This document shows positions 3,427 to 49,542 of a DNA stretch of 51,160 nucleotides, piece by piece (the first letter of the stretch is position 1; every line of letters begins with the position of its first letter). This stretch comes from a virus, in the IMG/VR virus record IMGVR_UViG_3300037742_000043, positions 1 to 51,160 of that record. The stretch is one strand, 5' to 3'. Below the pieces are notes generated by a model, which saw only the letters and a program-made list of their open reading frames with translations, did no database searches and was not told the DNA's origin. Made by a program: the position numbers and the translations under genes.

Positions 3427-4631
3427 CCTTTCACCTTAATAGTTGGTGCCTTTTTGCTGCTATATTTGGCACGAAGATACGCCTTTGTCTCTTCAGTCAA
3501 GCTTGGCGAGGCTAGAGCCTGATCTAGTGTTGCTTGCCCAGAATCAATTCTCTGAATCGCAGCCTTAGCTTGTGGCGTTTCATTCATCGCCGCAGCCTCT
3601 TGACTCTGCTTCATCATCTCAGGCAGCTTCTCCAGCACCTTTTTCTGTGCATCAGCATAAAACTTCGCTTCTTCTTTCGCATCCATCTTCGCCGCCTGAA
3701 GCTGCTGATACCTTTCAATCGCTGCTGGATTAATACTCTTAGCCATCTTCTTCTGCTGTTCTGGACTTGACTTGAGATACATCGCGAACATGTTGTCTTG
3801 TTGCAGCATTGTCACAATTTCTCGATCAGCGTCCATGACCTTGTTGTTCTTCTCAGCAACAGCAGAGCCAAAGATTCGTGCGCGATCAAGCAAAGCATCA
3901 GGAGTAGTCCCAGCGGTTCTCTCTTTCATCAACGACCGCTCAGCCGCAGTCCTACGCCCAAGCATGTCAATATCCTCATCATGCGCCATCCGTTTCCTAC
4001 GTGTCTCAACTGCTTCTTTGAGTACAAGCTCAGCAGGACTCCCTTCTATTCGCTTAAGCGCAAGAGGATTCGCAGATCCCTTAATAACCTGATCTGCAAG
4101 TCGCTCAAGATTTACATCACTAAGCTCAGGATACTGATCCCAACTCTGTTTCTGTAACGCCTCTGCCTCATCAAGTCGCTTTAGTGAAAATCTATCCTTT
4201 GCAATCGCTTGTTCGTTTCGTGTGACTTGTTGACTTGCGATTACATCAGCTTGTTCTCTCTCCTTCGCTTGTCGATCAATGTCAGCTTGTACAACAGTGC
4301 CGACTTCACGCGCATCAGCGATGGCCTTTTGTTGATCAGTGAGTCCACCACGAATCGCCGCGATTCGTTCTCTCTCCGCGCGCTTCGCACCAACCCCAAT
4401 CTTCGCGAGTGGATTCTTATTCTTCGCTCCTAGCGCTTTACTAAAGGTCTCTCTCTGTCCATCATCCATATCCGCAATCACATTCACCAGATTTGGATCT
4501 TGTTGTGCCATCTGATTGAATGTTTGTTGTGCATAAAAGTCTGGCGCGATGCCTTGTGCGATACTTTGAAAGAAGGACTGAAGTCCGCGCTGTGTATTCG
4601 GATTCTCAGACCACGATGGAATGTATGCCAT
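3423..4631 (-). CDS. charged coiled-coil protein (putative internal core protein), 402 aa
   Basis: K/E/A/Q-rich helical composition, coupled to the downstream 1120-aa ORF, AGGA-type RBS. Confidence 0.4.
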   Translation of the reverse strand: MAYIPSWSENPNTQRGLQSFFQSIAQGIAPDFYAQQTFNQMAQQDPNLVNVIADMDDGQRETFSKALGAKNKNPLAKIGVGAKRAERERIAAIRGGLTDQQKAIADAREVGTVVQADIDRQAKEREQADVIASQQVTRNEQAIAKDRFSLKRLDEAEALQKQSWDQYPELSDVNLERLADQVIKGSANPLALKRIEGSPAELVLKEAVETRRKRMAHDEDIDMLGRRTAAERSLMKERTAGTTPDALLDRARIFGSAVAEKNNKVMDADREIVTMLQQDNMFAMYLKSSPEQQKKMAKSINPAAIERYQQLQAAKMDAKEEAKFYADAQKKVLEKLPEMMKQSQEAAAMNETPQAKAAIQRIDSGQATLDQALASPSLTEETKAYLRAKYSSKKAPTIKVKG

Positions 4632-19990: not shown

Positions 19991-20131
19991 CTATTTAGCT
20001 GGTGGGAACTGTGGCTTTGACAGTCGTTTGCGCATCTTTGATAGTGTCTTTGCATTTACTGTCATCTTCTTCTTAGGGACCCTTTTCAACACCTTGGCCG
20101 GCGCGAAGGGTCCCTTTGCTTTTTCTGCCAT
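19991..20131 (-). CDS. small highly basic protein, 46 aa
   Basis: Internal ATG with AGAGG RBS. K/R-rich (MAEKAKGPFAPAKVLKRVPKKK...). Below the track cutoff from this start. Confidence 0.35.
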   Translation of the reverse strand: MAEKAKGPFAPAKVLKRVPKKKMTVNAKTLSKMRKRLSKPQFPPAK

Positions 20132-20426: not shown

Positions 20427-20744
20427 CTACTCTTCGCTAGATCTTTTGCTAGATTCACGAGAGTTAGGTTCGTCGTAGCTTCTCTTTTGTACAGTCTTTC
20501 GAGGAGCCAAGTTAGAAACCTCATCCTTTTCCTCCTTTGGCGAGAGAAGAGATTCAAGATTGTCAACCTTTCTCTTGAGATAGGTAATCTCTTCTGTCAT
20601 TGCAGTACGCTGTGAGTTGACAATCTCGTGGATTTTATCTGTTTCCTCTTGGTTCTTCTGGAGCATTTTGATGATGATGGTACTGACGACTGAGGCGATG
20701 GAGGTGACTGCGCCGATCATGGCAACGATTACTGTGTCTGTCAT
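20427..20744 (-). CDS. membrane-anchored coiled-coil protein, 105 aa
   Basis: ATGA coupling to the upstream gene. N-terminal TM (VIVAMIGAVTSIASVVSTIII) followed by a charged helical region. Confidence 0.55.
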   Translation of the reverse strand: MTDTVIVAMIGAVTSIASVVSTIIIKMLQKNQEETDKIHEIVNSQRTAMTEEITYLKRKVDNLESLLSPKEEKDEVSNLAPRKTVQKRSYDEPNSRESSKRSSEE

Positions 20745-29009: not shown

Positions 29010-29135
29010 ATGACGAGGATTACAGAGAAGGATGCGCGGCTGGACAGGTTGAGGGCGGTACGGGCGAGGATGGAGCGACTGGCCAAGCAGGGCAAGGCAC
29101 TAATGGTAAAAAGACCAACTATGGTCACAGCATGA
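29010..29135 (+). CDS. possible basic helical 41-aa protein
   Basis: Read by hand. GGAGG RBS. Confidence 0.3.
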   Translation: MTRITEKDARLDRLRAVRARMERLAKQGKALMVKRPTMVTA

Positions 29136-29144
29136 CCCGCAGGG

Positions 29145-29216
29145 CGAGAGAGACGGTCAAGGATTGCCTACTATATAGTAGAAACAATCCTCGGGGTTCG
29201 ATTCCCTATCTCTCCA
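29145..29216 (+). other. tRNA-like fragment with no usable anticodon arm
   Basis: T arm CGGGG-TTCGATT-CCCTA. Acceptor 6/7 bp (CGAGAGA/TCTCTCC). D arm with a GG loop. The anticodon position is occupied by the tight palindrome CTACTATATAGTAG. Confidence 0.3.
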
Positions 29217-29269
29217 TGCTCCAATCTCGGAGCGGGCAGCACCAACATTCATTCTCGGAGTAGCATCAC

Positions 29270-29776
29270 ATGAGTATCACTACGGTAAAGCTGAGCGGTA
29301 AGAAGAACACGAAAGATGGCAGCGAAATGGCATGGAAGGTTAATGCGAAGAACCTTGAGGCGAGCAAGTATCCGAATCTGACCAGTGGTGAGATTCCCGG
29401 ACCGAATAAGACGCGCATCGCTGTTGCACAGGTTCCCATGCTGCCATCCAATGTCACAACGACCGAGGCCACTTCGTATGAAGATGTGGTGACGGAAGCT
29501 GGTGATAAGTTTCAGGCATGGGTAGTTCGTAGCCGCAATGAACAAGTCCGCAATGCAGCAGAGGCAGCGGCCAAGGCGTATGCCCGTGACATCGAATCCT
29601 ATGCTGACGGTCAAGTCCTGACTTATGATGGCACAGGTGTTGACATTTACACTGTTGTGGAAAAGGCAGCAGTGAAGCAGTCTGCTGGCGCATTCAAGTC
29701 TGAATTGCAAAAGATCCTTGAACTCGATCTCTCCGACGCCGAACGTATCGCCATGATTCAGCAGCTTTCGAAGTAA
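29270..29776 (+). CDS. hypothetical protein, 168 aa
   Basis: Track ORF. Confidence 0.65.
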   Translation: MSITTVKLSGKKNTKDGSEMAWKVNAKNLEASKYPNLTSGEIPGPNKTRIAVAQVPMLPSNVTTTEATSYEDVVTEAGDKFQAWVVRSRNEQVRNAAEAAAKAYARDIESYADGQVLTYDGTGVDIYTVVEKAAVKQSAGAFKSELQKILELDLSDAERIAMIQQLSK

Positions 29777-29786
29777 TTTTGCAATA

Positions 29787-29835
29787 GGGGCTGTGTGATG
29801 GTAGTCATGAATCCTAGCAATCTTCACACAGCCCC
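29787..29835 (+). other. perfect 12-bp hairpin (processing site or U-tract-less terminator?)
   Basis: GGGGCTGTGTGA (29787-98) pairs with TCACACAGCCCC (29824-35), 25-nt loop, no downstream T run. Confidence 0.5.
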
Positions 29836-39857: not shown

Positions 39858-40034
39858 ATGACACTCCTCGAATTCCAAGCCATGATCAACGAGTATGTAA
39901 AGAAGCATCCGGAGCATCATCATATTGAAGTCGAAGATCAAGAAGGGCAGCCTCCAGACTCACTTGTCCTCACAAAGGCCATGATAACTACTGACACACA
40001 AGTTCCATATCCTGCATACTTGACTCTGCGATGA
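39858..40034 (+). CDS. MTL-family small protein, paralog 5, 58 aa
   Basis: Read by hand. MTLLEFQAMINEYVKKHPE... ATGA coupling to the next gene. Confidence 0.5.
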   Translation: MTLLEFQAMINEYVKKHPEHHHIEVEDQEGQPPDSLVLTKAMITTDTQVPYPAYLTLR

Positions 40035-40933
40035 AACTAAGCCAACTCAAACTATCCGAAGCCATTATCATGATGGTGTATGCGGAGCCGAAGATCGGGA
40101 AGAGTCATTTTGCAGCAACAGCAGCGGAGACAGACAGGATTGTTATCATCACCGACCTCAACGGTATCGAAACATACGCTGGCGCAGCGATCCGCAAGCA
40201 GTTTCCCAAGCTCGATGAGAACAACATTGAAGTAGAAATCATCACAAGGGATGGCAGTCTTAGTCAAGCCAAAGCATTCCAACAAATCAACGATGTCCTT
40301 CGCGAATACTTCGAACAGAAGCTCGACAAGTTCGACACGATTGTTATTGATGACAGCAGCTTCGTCAAGAATCAGGCCCGCAACCTAGCAATCAAGATCA
40401 ACGGCACATCTGGCCGCTCTTCCACCTACGACAAGGCCCTGAAGGACAACAAACCATCCTTCAACAACATCTCAGTCCTAGAAGAATCAGACTTCGGTCG
40501 TGAGATGGAGATGGTAGCGAACTTCTTCGAAGAACTGACCTCCATGTGCCGCAAGCATGGAAAGAACCTTATCGTCTGTGCCCACGAAGCACAAATCTAT
40601 ATCAAAAAGAAGAACGATAAGGGTAAGGATGTTCCTACTCTAGATCGTCGCACCGCAGCATTCACAGGCAAGAAGGAACCAACAGCTACATCTCGATACT
40701 TTTCGATTGTTGCAAGGCTCACAGCCAAGGGCAAAGAAGCATCTCGCCAAATCGTCTTCCAATGTAAAGCCGACGACATCGTAGACGCTGGCGATCGTTT
40801 CGGAGTCCTGAACACTTACGAATACAATCTCACATGGAGGCAACTTAAGGAGAAGGTCGCAGCACAAGTCGCAGCAGTAGAGCCAGTTCGAATCAAGAAA
40901 GAAGAATCACCCACACCATCCACTCAAGCATAA
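40031..40933 (+). CDS. RecA-fold ATPase, Sak4/AAA_24-like, 300 aa
   Basis: Walker A AEPKIGKS, Walker B TIVIDDSS. Followed by a DUF669-like gene, as is usual for Sak4 modules. Confidence 0.7.
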   Translation: MKLSQLKLSEAIIMMVYAEPKIGKSHFAATAAETDRIVIITDLNGIETYAGAAIRKQFPKLDENNIEVEIITRDGSLSQAKAFQQINDVLREYFEQKLDKFDTIVIDDSSFVKNQARNLAIKINGTSGRSSTYDKALKDNKPSFNNISVLEESDFGREMEMVANFFEELTSMCRKHGKNLIVCAHEAQIYIKKKNDKGKDVPTLDRRTAAFTGKKEPTATSRYFSIVARLTAKGKEASRQIVFQCKADDIVDAGDRFGVLNTYEYNLTWRQLKEKVAAQVAAVEPVRIKKEESPTPSTQA

Positions 40934-40944
40934 CCAAACTACTC

Positions 40945-41475
40945 ATGGCAATTTTCAATCCATCCGCTTCAAAGTTCGACACAACATTCTTTGTCTGCCC
41001 AGAAGGCACGCATCGCTTTAAGATTCAAGGCTTCAAGATGCGACTCGGCAAATGGGGCACAGGTAAGATGCTCTTTATTGACGTAAGCACTCGGATCGAA
41101 GGTGGCGGCGCAGATCTTGATGGCAAGATGGTCACTATCAGTCAACAACTGGGCAACACTGATCCAGACAACGATCGCTTGCCACTGGACGAAACTGGCG
41201 CACCGATCTACGACTTCAAAACCATCGCCACAATCGCCCACGCCGCACTTGGCTATGGCAATAACGACAAAGCCGAAGACAAACGCTTTGAACAGCAGGA
41301 ATCAGACTTCATGTCCTCATTATCCTTTGATGATGAGACACTTGAACTGCCCGGCGCAGGTTGGGAACGTCTCAAAGACTGTTCCTTCAAGGCCACCGTC
41401 GTCCGCAACGCAGACAGGAAAGACCCGAACAAGATCTACGCCCGATTCAACTACATCTCACCAGTGAATGGTTAA
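40945..41475 (+). CDS. DUF669-like protein (putative ssDNA binding), 176 aa
   Basis: Position after the Sak4-like ATPase and a weak N-terminal pattern. Acidic C-terminal part. Confidence 0.4.
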   Translation: MAIFNPSASKFDTTFFVCPEGTHRFKIQGFKMRLGKWGTGKMLFIDVSTRIEGGGADLDGKMVTISQQLGNTDPDNDRLPLDETGAPIYDFKTIATIAHAALGYGNNDKAEDKRFEQQESDFMSSLSFDDETLELPGAGWERLKDCSFKATVVRNADRKDPNKIYARFNYISPVNG

Positions 41476-41483
41476 GATGTAAA

Positions 41484-41711
41484 AAAGGGCTCTCACATAA
41501 CACATCGTGAAACCTTCAAGTCTTTCGTCACTAGTCATGACAAACAAGAAAGATGACGTAACCACATGTTCCCTGTTATGAACCTCAACTGGCGTTTGGC
41601 ACATGGTTGAAGGCACCCATGAGGGTTTCCTGTATGTTCTCCGCCGATTAGGTAAAAGGCGCATGATTTCCGCTTCGCAGCAGCGCCTCCAGTTGAGGGA
41701 GAGAGCCCTTT
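41484..41711 (+). ncRNA. structured element with a three-way junction (class unknown)
   Basis: P1 41484-94/41701-11 (11 bp), P3 41496-502/41574-80 (7 bp), P2 41583-92/41689-98 (10 bp), all perfect, with linkers of 1, 2 and 2 nt. No ORF. Confidence 0.6.
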
Positions 41712-41871
41712 GTTGTTCATTAATGTACCAAAGTCAATCCCGAGTCATCCAAGGTAAATGACAGACGGAGAGATGGCCTTCTTATCTAGTTACTGCCGCT
41801 CAGACTGACGGTATGGAGTTATCATACTAGGTCTGCAATATTGTGGGATTAAACCAGATAGATAAGATGAA

Positions 41872-41952
41872 TGTGCGGCTTTGATGGAAAAGGCAATGAG
41901 AGATTAATCATCTCGAATGCGTAAACTGCGGGTTCGACTCCCGCCCGCACAG
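41872..41952 (+). tRNA. tRNA-like element (class II Leu(UAA)-like layout, non-canonical anticodon arm)
   Basis: 7-bp acceptor TGTGCGG/CCGCACA, T arm GCGGG-TTCGACT-CCCGC, 3-bp D stem with a GG loop, 13-nt variable region. The anticodon stem has a G-A mismatch and position 37 is U. Confidence 0.4.
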
Positions 41953-46173: not shown

Positions 46174-46371
46174 ATGAGAATTATAGACCAAAATGACGAA
46201 CAAGATCGCAGAGTCATCACAGTAGAGTTTGACAGCGTAGATCTTATGAAGCTGCATCGAAGAACCTTAGCAAGGTTTCACAATGTTCTACACGACATGC
46301 TAAACGAACTCTATCCGGAAGTAGATGAAGATGATAAGCAAGAAGAAAGTCAATCACATCGGTCCACTTGA
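46174..46371 (+). CDS. hypothetical acidic protein, 65 aa
   Basis: AAGGAAAAGG RBS. Its 3' end overlaps the polA-N start. Confidence 0.45.
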   Translation: MRIIDQNDEQDRRVITVEFDSVDLMKLHRRTLARFHNVLHDMLNELYPEVDEDDKQEESQSHRST

Positions 46372-47962
46372 TGCCTCGATCTTCATCCTCGGAAAAGCGC
46401 CCGGAGCAGACGAGGATCATTATGGCATTCCATTTGTAGGCCAAATCGGTAAGTTTCTCGACCATTGCCTTTCTCTCGCCGGAATAGATCGAGAATCCTG
46501 CCGCATCGGAAATGTCTGCAACTACAAACCAACAAGAAACATCTTCGCAATTCTGAAAGACTCTGATCAACTAAAGGAATCTCATGCCGAACTCTCTGCT
46601 TACTTGGAAACGTACAGACCTCGCATTATCATCGCTCTTGGAAATGAAGCTTTGCGATATCTTAGACATCACGATGGAATCTCTAATTGGCGAGGAAGTG
46701 TCTTACCATATTCACATAATTCATTCATCATACCGACCTACCACCCTGCTGACGCCATCCGAGACGGAACCTTCGCCCCACAAGTTGTCTTCGATCTCAC
46801 CAAGGCCAAGCGAGTTTTAGATCATGGCTACACCAGACCAGTCCATGACTTCGTAATCGACCCGCACCCTGATCAACTCGAATCAATCCTAGAAGAGGTG
46901 CGCAATGCCCCGTTCATCGCCGCCGACATTGAAACAGGAATGTCAACGTCTTATGTCAAGTGTTTCGGCTTCGCAGTCAGTTCAAACAGAGCCTTTACCT
47001 TCCGAAATCATTACGATGTTGGTATCGAGCAATCTTTTTCCAAGATGGTATCTGCTGTTATATCAGCAGCCAAGGAGATCGTCTACCACAACGGCAGCTA
47101 CGACACCTCGCAACTAAGAGACAATCATGTCGAATACGCAGAAAGGCTTGACTATGACACCATGCTCGCCCAGCGAGTCCTCGAACCTGACCTTCCAATC
47201 GGTCTCGCCTTCTGTGCCTCTATCTACACCGACGAACCGTACTACAAAAACGACGGAAAGGAAACAGGCAAGCGCATTACGTGGGAGAAACTTGCACCGT
47301 ACAATTGTATCGACTGTATTGTTACATGGCAGACGAGGGTTGAGCAAGAAAAGATTTTCGCGCTGGATAGTATTCTCGATACTGACAGGAAATTCATATT
47401 CAGCCGTATACCCCTTATGCAAGAATTTCAGCGCAATGGGATGCTGGTTGATGAAGAAAGAAGGGATACGCTTCGCAGATCGACACAGGCCAAGCTATCA
47501 CAATCAGAAAGGATTGTTAACATATCCACCGGCTACTCTCTTAACTTCCGAAGCTCTAAGCAAGTAAAGTCGCTTCTTTACGACATTCTAAAACTACCGA
47601 TCAGAAAGAAGCGAAACGCAAGTGGCGAAGAAGTAATCTCCGCCGACGAAGACGCAATTGTCTCCCTTATCCAATACGTTCAAGGGCAAATAGATGACAA
47701 AAAGACAAATACGGGTAGAGATCCGTGGCTCCTTCGACTTTATGCCCTCAAGAGTATCCTCGATATTAGAGGCAATGAGAAGCTTATTTCTTCCTACTTC
47801 GATGCAGCATCATCCGCCGACGGACGCATACGTTCCTCCTACTATCCTGCTGGAACAGACACAGGAAGATGGAGTTGTGGTACTTACGTTGACGGAACAG
47901 GATTGAATGCGCAAACACTCCCAAGACTTGAAATCGAAATCACTACTCAACAGGAGGCATGA
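46325..47962 (+). CDS. polA: DNA polymerase A, N-terminal piece: UDG-like domain + 3'-5' exonuclease + N-terminal part of the polymerase domain, 545 aa
   Basis: UDG family-4-like GKAPGADEDHYGIPFVGQIGKFL...HPA. Exo motifs FIAADIETG, YHNGSYD, YNCID. DGRIRSSYYPAGTDTGRWS...NAQTLP, then a stop 12 codons later. Confidence 0.8.
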   Translation: MKMISKKKVNHIGPLDASIFILGKAPGADEDHYGIPFVGQIGKFLDHCLSLAGIDRESCRIGNVCNYKPTRNIFAILKDSDQLKESHAELSAYLETYRPRIIIALGNEALRYLRHHDGISNWRGSVLPYSHNSFIIPTYHPADAIRDGTFAPQVVFDLTKAKRVLDHGYTRPVHDFVIDPHPDQLESILEEVRNAPFIAADIETGMSTSYVKCFGFAVSSNRAFTFRNHYDVGIEQSFSKMVSAVISAAKEIVYHNGSYDTSQLRDNHVEYAERLDYDTMLAQRVLEPDLPIGLAFCASIYTDEPYYKNDGKETGKRITWEKLAPYNCIDCIVTWQTRVEQEKIFALDSILDTDRKFIFSRIPLMQEFQRNGMLVDEERRDTLRRSTQAKLSQSERIVNISTGYSLNFRSSKQVKSLLYDILKLPIRKKRNASGEEVISADEDAIVSLIQYVQGQIDDKKTNTGRDPWLLRLYALKSILDIRGNEKLISSYFDAASSADGRIRSSYYPAGTDTGRWSCGTYVDGTGLNAQTLPRLEIEITTQQEA

Positions 47963-48499: not shown

Positions 48500-48700
48500 A
48501 TGAGGTTCAATAACTTAACAGACGAACAACTCAACAAACTAGTTCAGCAGTTTGAGTCAGCTATCGCTCTTGCCAATAACACTGGAACGGTTCATTTCGC
48601 CCTCGACGCTCTCAACGAAGTACAAGGCGAGATTAATCGAAGACAAGAGTTGAGGCTCAAGCAAGAAGTTCCAAGTTGGTGGCAAGGCTTGTTGAGATGA
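48500..48700 (+). CDS. intervening ORF 3, 66 aa
   Basis: RBS lies inside junction-repeat copy C. ATGA coupling to polA-C. Confidence 0.55.
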   Translation: MRFNNLTDEQLNKLVQQFESAIALANNTGTVHFALDALNEVQGEINRRQELRLKQEVPSWWQGLLR

Positions 48701-49542
48701 GCGCTCTCCCAATCCAATCTGCAAAGAAAAAAGCCGCTATTCGATCCTTCATCACTTGCGCCCCCGCCAACGTACTCATCGAACTCGACCTCAGCGCAGC
48801 AGAAAGCTGGTGCGTAGCTCATCTCGCGAATGATCAGAACATGATTCAGCAGTTAGAGCTAGGACAGCTTCATCAGTATTCTGCGCGGATGATCTTCCGC
48901 GATCCATCAATCACCAAGGCGAACAAGACCGAGTACTACATCGGCAAACGAATGAACCATCTTTGCGGTTACCGTGGCAGTCCTGAGATGCTAACAACAA
49001 CAATCAACAAAGATGGCGAGATCACAGTCGCACTAAGACAGATCAAAGTCTACCACAAGCTCTGGCACTCAACCTACAACATCACAAATTGGTGGGCCGA
49101 CATTGAGCGACGACTGCGAAATAACGATGGAACGCTCATTACTGCTTACGGAAAGAAACGGAAGTTCTGGGGTTTTTTTAATAGCGATCTACTTAAGGCC
49201 GCCACAGCCTTTGAGCCTCAGAGTCTGGTGTCATATCATATGGACGGTGCTGTCCATCCTGACATCGGCATTCCGGGAGGCTTACTCGAAATCCAAAGAC
49301 AAATCACAATCCCATATCCATCTATCAGACTCATTAACACATCACACGACAGCGTCCTCATCGAATGCCCTCGGCCCATCTCACTGGAAATAGCCCTACG
49401 TTGTAAAGCCTTACTTACTCGGCCATTGATGATTCATGGCCAGACCTTTACTATCCCGGTGGATTGTGAGCGATACGATAGAAGATGGAAGGAAGACGGA
49501 GAGCGACTTGTCGGTGAACGGTTCGAGAGCATTGGTCATTGA
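48697..49542 (+). CDS. polA: DNA polymerase A, C-terminal piece (motifs A, B, C), 281 aa
   Basis: Start at ATG 48697 (ATGA coupling). LPIQSAKKKAAIRSF, motif A LIELDLSAAESW, motif B GKRMNHLCGYRGS, motif C TSHDSVLIE. Confidence 0.8.
   Translation: MSALPIQSAKKKAAIRSFITCAPANVLIELDLSAAESWCVAHLANDQNMIQQLELGQLHQYSARMIFRDPSITKANKTEYYIGKRMNHLCGYRGSPEMLTTTINKDGEITVALRQIKVYHKLWHSTYNITNWWADIERRLRNNDGTLITAYGKKRKFWGFFNSDLLKAATAFEPQSLVSYHMDGAVHPDIGIPGGLLEIQRQITIPYPSIRLINTSHDSVLIECPRPISLEIALRCKALLTRPLMIHGQTFTIPVDCERYDRRWKEDGERLVGERFESIGH

Follow-up and report, generated by a model that had tools for sequence, protein, structure and literature searches.

Positions 41484–41711 of the viral record IMGVR_UViG_3300037742_000043, which was analysed over its entire length of 51,160 nt (hereafter the window), most likely belong to a family of compactly folded phage RNAs, 178–228 nt long, that had not been catalogued before. 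The element lies behind the genes for a Sak4-like AAA_24 protein and a 176-aa protein, and its helices, including a pseudoknot between the two main arms, covary among five phage lineages. On balance we consider it to be a folded phage RNA of the + strand that is cotranscribed within an operon, probably obtains its 3' end through RNase P and may act in trans as a stable binder of a partner.

The folded element and its conservation

A reading of the window from its letters alone (the sequence-only reading) had described a three-way junction of nested perfect helices in a gap without a credible open reading frame (ORF). The helices P1 (11 bp, AAAGGGCTCTC/GAGAGCCCTTT, 41484–41494/41701–41711), P3 (7 bp, CATAACA/TGTTATG, 41496–41502/41574–41580) and P2 (10 bp, CCTCAACTGG/CCAGTTGAGG, 41583–41592/41689–41698) are indeed exact reverse complements, with junction linkers of 1, 2 and 2 nt as claimed. 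Exact complementarity was also confirmed for the hairpin AGGCGC/GCGCCT (41657–41662/41683–41688) and for the proposed inter-arm pairing CCTTCAA/TTGAAGG (41513–41519/41607–41613), the latter also covarying among the five phages. A minor hairpin, GTCAT/ATGAC, exists as a pair of sequences, but the coordinate given for its 3' arm was off by one base and it is not conserved. The gap does contain mechanical ORFs of 52–68 aa, none of which has a Pfam match, and no gene was called at that spot in any relative.

The three-way layout itself proved real but not as simple as first described, the P2 arm being branched in its turn (P2a/P2b plus P2c). P1 closes the junction; arm 1 consists of P3, invariant like its UUCCC bulge, which is continued by P3a and ends in a variable tip, and arm 2 of P2, which forms a further junction leading into P2a–P2b and P2c. 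The loop of the P3 arm pairs with the P2b loop in a loop–loop pseudoknot of 6–7 bp, which holds the two main arms side by side. The P2b loop, which carries the 3' strand of the pseudoknot (41607–41613), has a conserved motif, UUrAAGAUyAU.

Five metagenome relatives of the Sak4-like AAA_24 protein (40031–40933) were identified (43–56% identity), and their contigs are syntenic: a PD-(D/E)XK nuclease, the AAA_24 protein, a protein of 166–172 aa, a gap and small genes are followed, in the same order throughout, by a Cpn10-like protein, a protein of ~500 aa and a UDG–PolA fusion. The element is found in four other uncultured phage lineages, directly after the 166–172-aa gene that follows the AAA_24 gene. 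The lineages in question are L001 (with identical sequences in L002, L009 and L033), L006, L007 (identical in L055, L056 and L058) and L023 (the same sequence as L008), giving with the window five distinct member sequences; a second assembly of the window phage (L066) is 100% identical. Common to all five members are CAYAUAACA, the 14-mer UUCCCUGUUAUGAA and CGNUU, the last site reading GGCGNUUGGC in four of them and GUCGAUUCAG in L023. The flanking proteins among the carriers of the element are merely 29–56% identical.

The sequence-only reading had named homologous regions as the place to look for covariation; such regions exist, and the helices covary strongly in them, the inter-arm pairing included. 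The five sequences were aligned by hand, segment by segment, because a plain MAFFT alignment misplaced the 3' half; an alignment tool left the columns of the hand alignment unchanged. Standard pairs were found in 95.7% of the 258 pair cells, compared with 35–40% when the 3' partners were slid by 1–3 columns, and both-sided (compensatory) changes in 36 of the 58 pairs. The observed covariation measures were reached by none of 500 shuffles. Three of the four pairs of P2a are compensatory, with UGGC/GCCA replaced by UCAG/CUGA in L023. Of the pseudoknot cells 93% are paired, as against 33–56% when slid, and three of its pairs are compensatory, with AUCUUC/GAAGAU in most members, CCUUCAA/UUGAAGG in the window and ACUCU/AGAGU in L023. 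From the hand alignment RNAalifold derived these nested helices again, 30 pairs being compensatory; because of this input, the result checks the structure assignment only. Folding of the single sequences, a check wholly independent of the alignment, gave z-scores of −2.0 to −4.5. All five folds contain P1, P3, P2 and P2c; P3a and P2b each appear in three of them and P2a in two.

Since the helices covary and each sequence folded alone recovers the same four of them, the structure is a real and selected one. Alongside the pairing, 47 of the 148 core columns are invariant, those of the 14-mer included, while the neighbouring proteins are only ~30–50% identical; this invariant core points to sequence-specific recognition or tertiary contacts.

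Shuffled-sequence controls agreed with the earlier statement that such nested helices are improbable by chance. Of 5000 dinucleotide shuffles of the 479-nt gap, 11 (0.2%) contained two distinct perfect helices of at least 10 bp within 250 nt, and among overlapping 479-nt segments of the real 51-kb window only three places, the junction included, show two such helices. The minimum free energy fold of 41484–41711 as RNA gives the three-way junction at −72.4 kcal/mol (z = −2.8), a stability matched by 3 of 200 shuffles. A fortuitous complementarity without function would be in keeping with the z-score of the window alone, which is only −2.8, but can for practical purposes be dismissed given the rarity of such helices in shuffles and the compensatory changes conserved in five lineages. 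The conserved structure at 41484–41711 is real, and we see hardly any room for doubt on this point.

A covariance model, designated R1, was built from a seed that includes the window. Run on all loci compared, it gave one copy per genome at 97–108 bits and nothing else. The window matches the full model with 96.9 bits (E 2e-22), a score that it has by construction as a member of the seed. It also shows the R1 layout, P1–P3–P3a–P2–P2a–P2b–P2c with the invariant CAUAACA … UUCCCUGUUAUGAA … CGNUU, and P1, P3, P2 and P2c were recovered by its independent single-sequence fold.

The family appears to be rare. No relative of the window was found among GenBank phages by blastn, near or distant, or by tblastn with both flanking proteins, and protein-guided searches of IMG/VR (with the 176-aa protein, the 300-aa protein and an alignment) returned only the window's own contig. 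A strict P3 pattern run against viral, metagenome and genome collections detected true members only at the known loci plus L023; the remaining 40-odd hits, which came from the metagenome and genome collections, lay in unrelated genes and are attributable to chance. Three looser or alternative DNA patterns yielded no new member in IMG/VR, and a profile of the upstream protein family, used as query, brought in nothing beyond identical copies of the L007 element. In the L003–L005 lineage the covariance-model scan detected no element, though the replication genes are the same. At the same syntenic spot (L003 7144–7289, the same in L004 and L005) there is a perfect 12-bp GC-rich hairpin, GGAGGAGGGAGA...UCUCCUUCCUCC, followed by a tRNA-Gln(UUG). 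In L006 a non-coding stretch of ~125 nt upstream of the element (4131–4257) forms a long-range stem, GCGGUGGUAA...UUACCACUGC, which has no counterpart in the window.

The features of the element and of the remainder of the gap are listed in Table 1. The 160-nt spacer downstream of P1 was considered as a second RNA and rejected, as it has no homolog in the relatives and its stability is ordinary.

Table 1. Features of the element and of the sequence downstream of it, in window coordinates
Feature	Position	Strand	Observation
P1 5' strand, closing helix	41484–41494	+	Complement of 41701–41711; 8/11 pairs compensatory among the five phages
P3 5' strand CAUAACA	41496–41502	+	Identical in 5/5 members; in every single-sequence fold
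P3a 5' strand (CAU-C-GUG)	41503–41509	+	Partner 41563–41568; 5/6 pairs compensatory; 100% of cells paired
Pseudoknot 5' strand CCUUCAA, P3-arm loop	41513–41519	+	Complement of 41607–41613
Variable insert of P3 arm (P3b)	41520–41562	+	10 to 43 nt long; sequence unconserved among members
P3a 3' strand CACAUG	41563–41568	+	Helix covaries
UUCCC bulge, P3 3' strand UGUUAUG and AA linker	41569–41582	+	14-mer TTCCCTGTTATGAA identical in 5/5
P2 5' strand	41583–41592	+	Perfect complement of 41689–41698; 7/10 pairs compensatory
Joiner CGNU and P2a 5' strand UGGC	41593–41600	+	GGCGNUUGGC conserved; P2a partner 41643–41646
P2b hairpin CAUGG/loop UUGAAGGCAC/CCAUG	41602–41621	+	3/5 pairs compensatory; 100% of cells paired
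P2a 3' strand GCCG and A-rich joiner AUUAGGUAAA	41643–41656	+	Joiner conserved
P2c hairpin AGGCGC...GCGCCU	41657–41688	+	7/9 pairs compensatory; 100% of cells paired; loop variable, 9–41 nt
P2 3' strand	41689–41698	+	Complement and covariation
P1 3' strand	41701–41711	+	Complement and covariation
Spacer peculiar to the window phage, 160 nt	41712–41871	+	Unconserved in relatives; z = −0.4
tRNA-like element	41872–41952	+	7-bp acceptor stem, D arm, irregular anticodon arm (5-nt loop), T arm GGUUCGACUCC

RNA or DNA, and the coding strand

Whether the structure was a phage non-coding RNA or a DNA structure for replication or recombination had been left undecided by the sequence-only reading; the RNA alternative is favoured here and the DNA alternative disfavoured. 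The element is very probably an RNA of the + strand because several features concur. All genes from ~26 kb to the contig end are on the + strand, as are the tRNA-Gln and the tRNA-like elements directly downstream of the element. This is also the strand on which the invariant single-stranded joiners are rich in A, with an A-run before the pseudoknot and a joiner that reads GGUAAAAGG in the window and L007 and AACGAAAA in L001, L006 and L023. Finally, covariation in a pseudoknot is characteristic of tertiary structure in RNA.

As a DNA-level element the region would serve as an origin of replication or a site of recombination, with its single strands extruded into a cruciform or three-way form. 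No iterons were identified in the region, where only chance-level two-copy repeats occur, and at the position of the element there is neither a GC-skew turning point nor an AT-rich block (GC 0.48), so that the direct-repeat arrays and AT-rich unwinding region of an iteron-type replication origin are both absent. The covarying pseudoknot and the A-rich invariant joining strands are likewise typical of RNA tertiary structure and argue against this proposal, as do the tight coupling to same-strand tRNA or tRNA-like genes and the absence of the element from L003–L005 despite the same replication genes. What speaks for a DNA element is its position between recombination genes and helicase/polymerase genes, the fold of the complementary strand, which is at least as good as that of the + strand (z = −3.6 vs −2.8 for the junction region), and wobble counts that do not discriminate between the strands. 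Taken together we regard a DNA-level role as very improbable.

Operon context, tRNA-like neighbours and proposed working

The element begins 8 nt past the stop codon of the upstream gene in the window and 3–12 nt past it in L001, L007 and L023, and no promoter-like site was found near it. Cotranscription with the upstream recombination genes is most likely, because this start, 3–12 nt after the stop codon in four of the five members, leaves no room for a promoter.

Downstream, the gap also contains a tRNA-like element (41872–41952) that the sequence-only reading had passed over. Its acceptor stem, D arm and canonical T arm resemble those of a tRNA, whereas the anticodon arm is irregular. Its score against the Rfam tRNA model, 21.4 bits, misses the gathering score of 29, ARAGORN did not detect it and its anticodon loop has 5 nt instead of 7 nt; it thus falls outside the tRNAs proper, though it has a cloverleaf-like fold (z = −2.3). 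In L006 a genuine tRNA-Gln begins 3 nt after P1, and in L007 and L023 tRNA-like elements begin 0–5 nt after P1. That of L007 lacks a D arm; that of L023 lacks an anticodon arm and is made up of acceptor stem, D-like hairpin and T arm. RNase P needs only the acceptor/T-arm stack, and the tRNA-like elements of the window, L007 and L023 all combine an acceptor stem of 7–8 bp with a T stem of 5–6 bp and a 7-nt loop. Elements of this kind keep the stack but, by their sequence, would be unable to decode, and a role as processing signals appears the most economical explanation for them.

A second tRNA-like element was noted in the window at ~29145–29214 (+), within a region of interest at ~29010–29218. 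Its acceptor-like stem is GAGAGA/UCUCUC and its T arm GGGGUUCGAUUCCC, with a long hairpin in the centre, and it comes after a 41-aa Arg/Leu-rich ORF (29010–29135). At ~760–985, L001 contains an analogous Arg/Leu-rich coding-like stretch followed by a T arm, GAGUGGUUCGACUCCAC, with the tRNA-like element at ~900–985. These two cases suggest that the clade uses tRNA-like 'punctuation' repeatedly. Other inverted repeats of the window comprise two interleaved pairs of 13 and 11 nt (20542–20626), a perfect 10-bp hairpin (20075–20115) and a perfect 12-bp hairpin, GGGGCUGUGUGA/UCACACAGCCCC (29787–29835), ~10 nt past the stop of a 168-aa ORF (29270–29776).

For the element we propose the following working. 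The RNA would be transcribed within the recombination/replication operon that encodes the PD-(D/E)XK nuclease, the Sak4-like ATPase and the SSB-like OB-fold protein. Host RNase P would then cut at the 5' end of the following tRNA or tRNA-like element and thereby create the 3' end of the RNA, located at P1 or, in the window, 160 nt beyond P1; that the 3' end is made through the tRNA-like element is, from the arrangement of the sequences, probable. P1, which pairs both ends, would protect the released RNA, and the covarying scaffold would present the invariant nucleotides of P3, bulge and junction, which could form a specific binding surface for a partner, be it a protein, an RNA or a small molecule. 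The element would thus work as a stable trans-acting RNA, similar to other orphan phage RNAs beside tRNA genes. This last part, the binding of a partner in trans, we infer and advance only tentatively.

Several observations weigh against this proposal. In the window 160 nt separate P1 from the tRNA-like element, and in L001 the element is present with no tRNA-like element behind it. The element seems dispensable, because L003–L005 carry only the 12-bp hairpin and the tRNA-Gln at the same position, and a simpler role in cis is conceivable. The wobble cells, mostly at helix ends, number 8 U-G and 8 A-C, which leaves the strand unsettled by this measure. The P3 pairing never varies and is therefore not proven by covariation, there are only five distinct sequences, and a hand-made structural alignment leans towards structure. 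Transcript ends, stability and processing are, moreover, all inferred.

The main rival to trans-acting partner binding is a cis-acting mRNA end module, with the riboswitch, ribozyme and DNA-origin readings less likely. As such an end module the element would be the protective 3' structure of the mRNA for the SSB-like and Sak4-like proteins after the RNase P cut, might insulate the folding of the tRNA from the mRNA and would have no function in trans. The start close behind the stop codon, the missing promoter room and the lack of a promoter-like site would all suit such a module, and the plain 12-bp GC-rich hairpin before the tRNA-Gln in L003–L005 suggests functional replacement by a simple stable structure. 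A protective stem, however, needs no 14-nt invariant core, invariant joining strands or covarying pseudoknot, and L001 retains the element without any tRNA-like element; we therefore hold a purely protective role to be unlikely, and prefer the stable trans-acting RNA.

Regarding the surrounding genes, the 176-aa protein encoded directly upstream of the RNA (40945–41475, +) had no sequence match in Pfam, PHROGs or the PDB, and the DUF669 label previously given to the upstream gene received no support from Pfam. Its AlphaFold model (pLDDT 69, medium confidence) gave as best Foldseek match PrgE of plasmid pCF10 (E 8e-4, TM 0.42–0.54), an OB-fold protein that binds single-stranded DNA; an SSB-like role next to Sak4 is plausible from this model. 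In L007 a 74-aa gene with a precomputed Pfam match to Acb2/Tad1-hairpin (1374–1598) is located between the Sak4-like and SSB-like genes. Acb2/Tad1-hairpin is an anti-defence sponge family, and its insertion here indicates that the neighbourhood tolerates counter-defence cargo. Further downstream in the window, the family A DNA polymerase is split: ORF 46325–47962 (+) encodes the N-terminal part of PolA together with UDG and the 3'-5' exonuclease, and ORF 48676–49542 (+) the C-terminal part. The ~710 nt between them contain three or four small ORFs (39–81 aa) and no match to a group I intron model, and the relatives likewise end the first PolA ORF at 533–545 aa.

Comparison with known RNAs

The sequence-only reading had been unable to match the element to a known RNA layout by eye, and the search of Rfam 15 came to the same result. 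Among the 4227 models of this release there should be those for the known riboswitches and self-cleaving ribozymes, for 6S, tmRNA and RNase P, and for large RNAs such as GOLLD, ROOL, raiA, OLE and HEARO. At the gathering threshold there was no match in the whole window, and at E up to 10 nothing on the + strand overlapped the element in the window, L023, L006 or L058. The neighbours of the element are the AAA_24 protein, the OB-fold-like protein, small ORFs and the Cpn10-like protein; a retron msr-msd was considered and rejected, as no reverse transcriptase domain was present among the scanned window proteins or in the domain annotation precomputed for genes of the relatives. We regard the element as a member of a genuine, conserved and previously uncatalogued structured phage RNA family that is linked to tRNA-like elements.

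In layout only, the element resembles purine riboswitches and the hammerhead ribozyme, which share a three-way junction, parallel arms brought together by a loop–loop contact and conserved junction nucleotides. It differs from both in being two to three times larger, with one arm branched, in having neither core and in lacking an Rfam match. A ligand-sensing, riboswitch-like aptamer could in principle regulate the downstream tRNA-like element and genes at the level of read-through or processing, and side-by-side arms with a loop–loop lock, invariant junction nucleotides and covarying helices are, from general knowledge, what such an aptamer looks like. A riboswitch would combine the aptamer with an expression platform before a regulated gene, but no conserved platform was detected: a terminator-like U-run follows P1 in the window only, and what lies downstream is either a tRNA-like element or, more than 20 nt away, a gene. 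As P1 closes the whole domain and no Rfam riboswitch model matches, a riboswitch is improbable.

The same features, an invariant core with three covarying helices and a loop–loop contact, are in general terms also those of small ribozymes such as the hammerhead, and a catalytic RNA could free itself from the polycistronic transcript by, for example, generating a new 5' end immediately behind the stop codon, where promoter space is absent and some 5' processing is required. Host RNases could, however, make this end, and no hammerhead, twister, pistol, hatchet or HDV-like model matched at E up to 10. A hammerhead (CUGANGA ... GAAA ... UH) was examined specifically and rejected: the junction strands, A, AA and GA with P3 formed or ACAUAACA.../UUCCCUGUUAUGAA/GA with P3 unformed, do not fit its core and the model gave no match. 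We accordingly regard self-cleavage as quite improbable.

New ribozymes, riboswitches and RNA-only assemblies have time and again been discovered among complex folded RNAs that combine covarying helices with a pseudoknot and an invariant core. It is conceivable, though rather unlikely, that the element constitutes a new functional RNA class with a chemistry or assembly of its own, as a self-processing ribozyme, a ligand-binder or an RNA that self-assembles via intermolecular loop–loop contact, working together with the anticodon-less, tRNA-like RNase P 'punctuation' marks of the clade. With ~200 nt the element is compact and suited to chemical probing, crystallography or cryo-electron microscopy. 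Its significance is limited by its rarity, with five lineages, all of them from uncultured phages. Should RNase P indeed act at the degenerate tRNA-like element, the clade would offer tRNA-like 'punctuation' of phage operons in addition to a new RNA family.

A processing logic of this kind is known from MALAT1, a eukaryotic nuclear RNA in which RNase P cuts at a downstream tRNA-like element, mascRNA, and the 3' end is stabilised by a triple helix. As proposed for the phage element, a folded RNA is followed there by a non-decoding tRNA-like element and has its 3' end defined by RNase P; the end of the phage RNA would, in contrast, be protected by P1 and not by a triple helix.

Among phages, RNAC and RNAD of T4 are encoded beside the phage tRNA genes and are matured with them. 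They are stable small phage RNAs whose function is still unknown (PMC9697503); they showed no sequence or structure relation to the element, and T4-type phages are unrelated to the clade described here, for which no GenBank phage gave a match by DNA or protein. GOLLD and ROOL are ornate, pseudoknotted RNAs of phages and prophages, often near tRNA genes, whose function and protein partner are unidentified (PMC12286853). The element shares with them its location in a phage near tRNA or tRNA-like genes, at 0–5 nt in three members and 160 nt in the window. It differs in size, with 178–228 nt as against ~580 to >800 nt with a multi-pseudoknot core, matches neither model, is unrelated to them in sequence and fold and gives no sign of multimer or cage formation, and is not a member of either family. 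Phage RNAs next to tRNA genes, such as GOLLD, ROOL and T4 RNAC and RNAD, are long-standing orphans, and in genomic habit GOLLD and ROOL are the closest known RNAs to the element.
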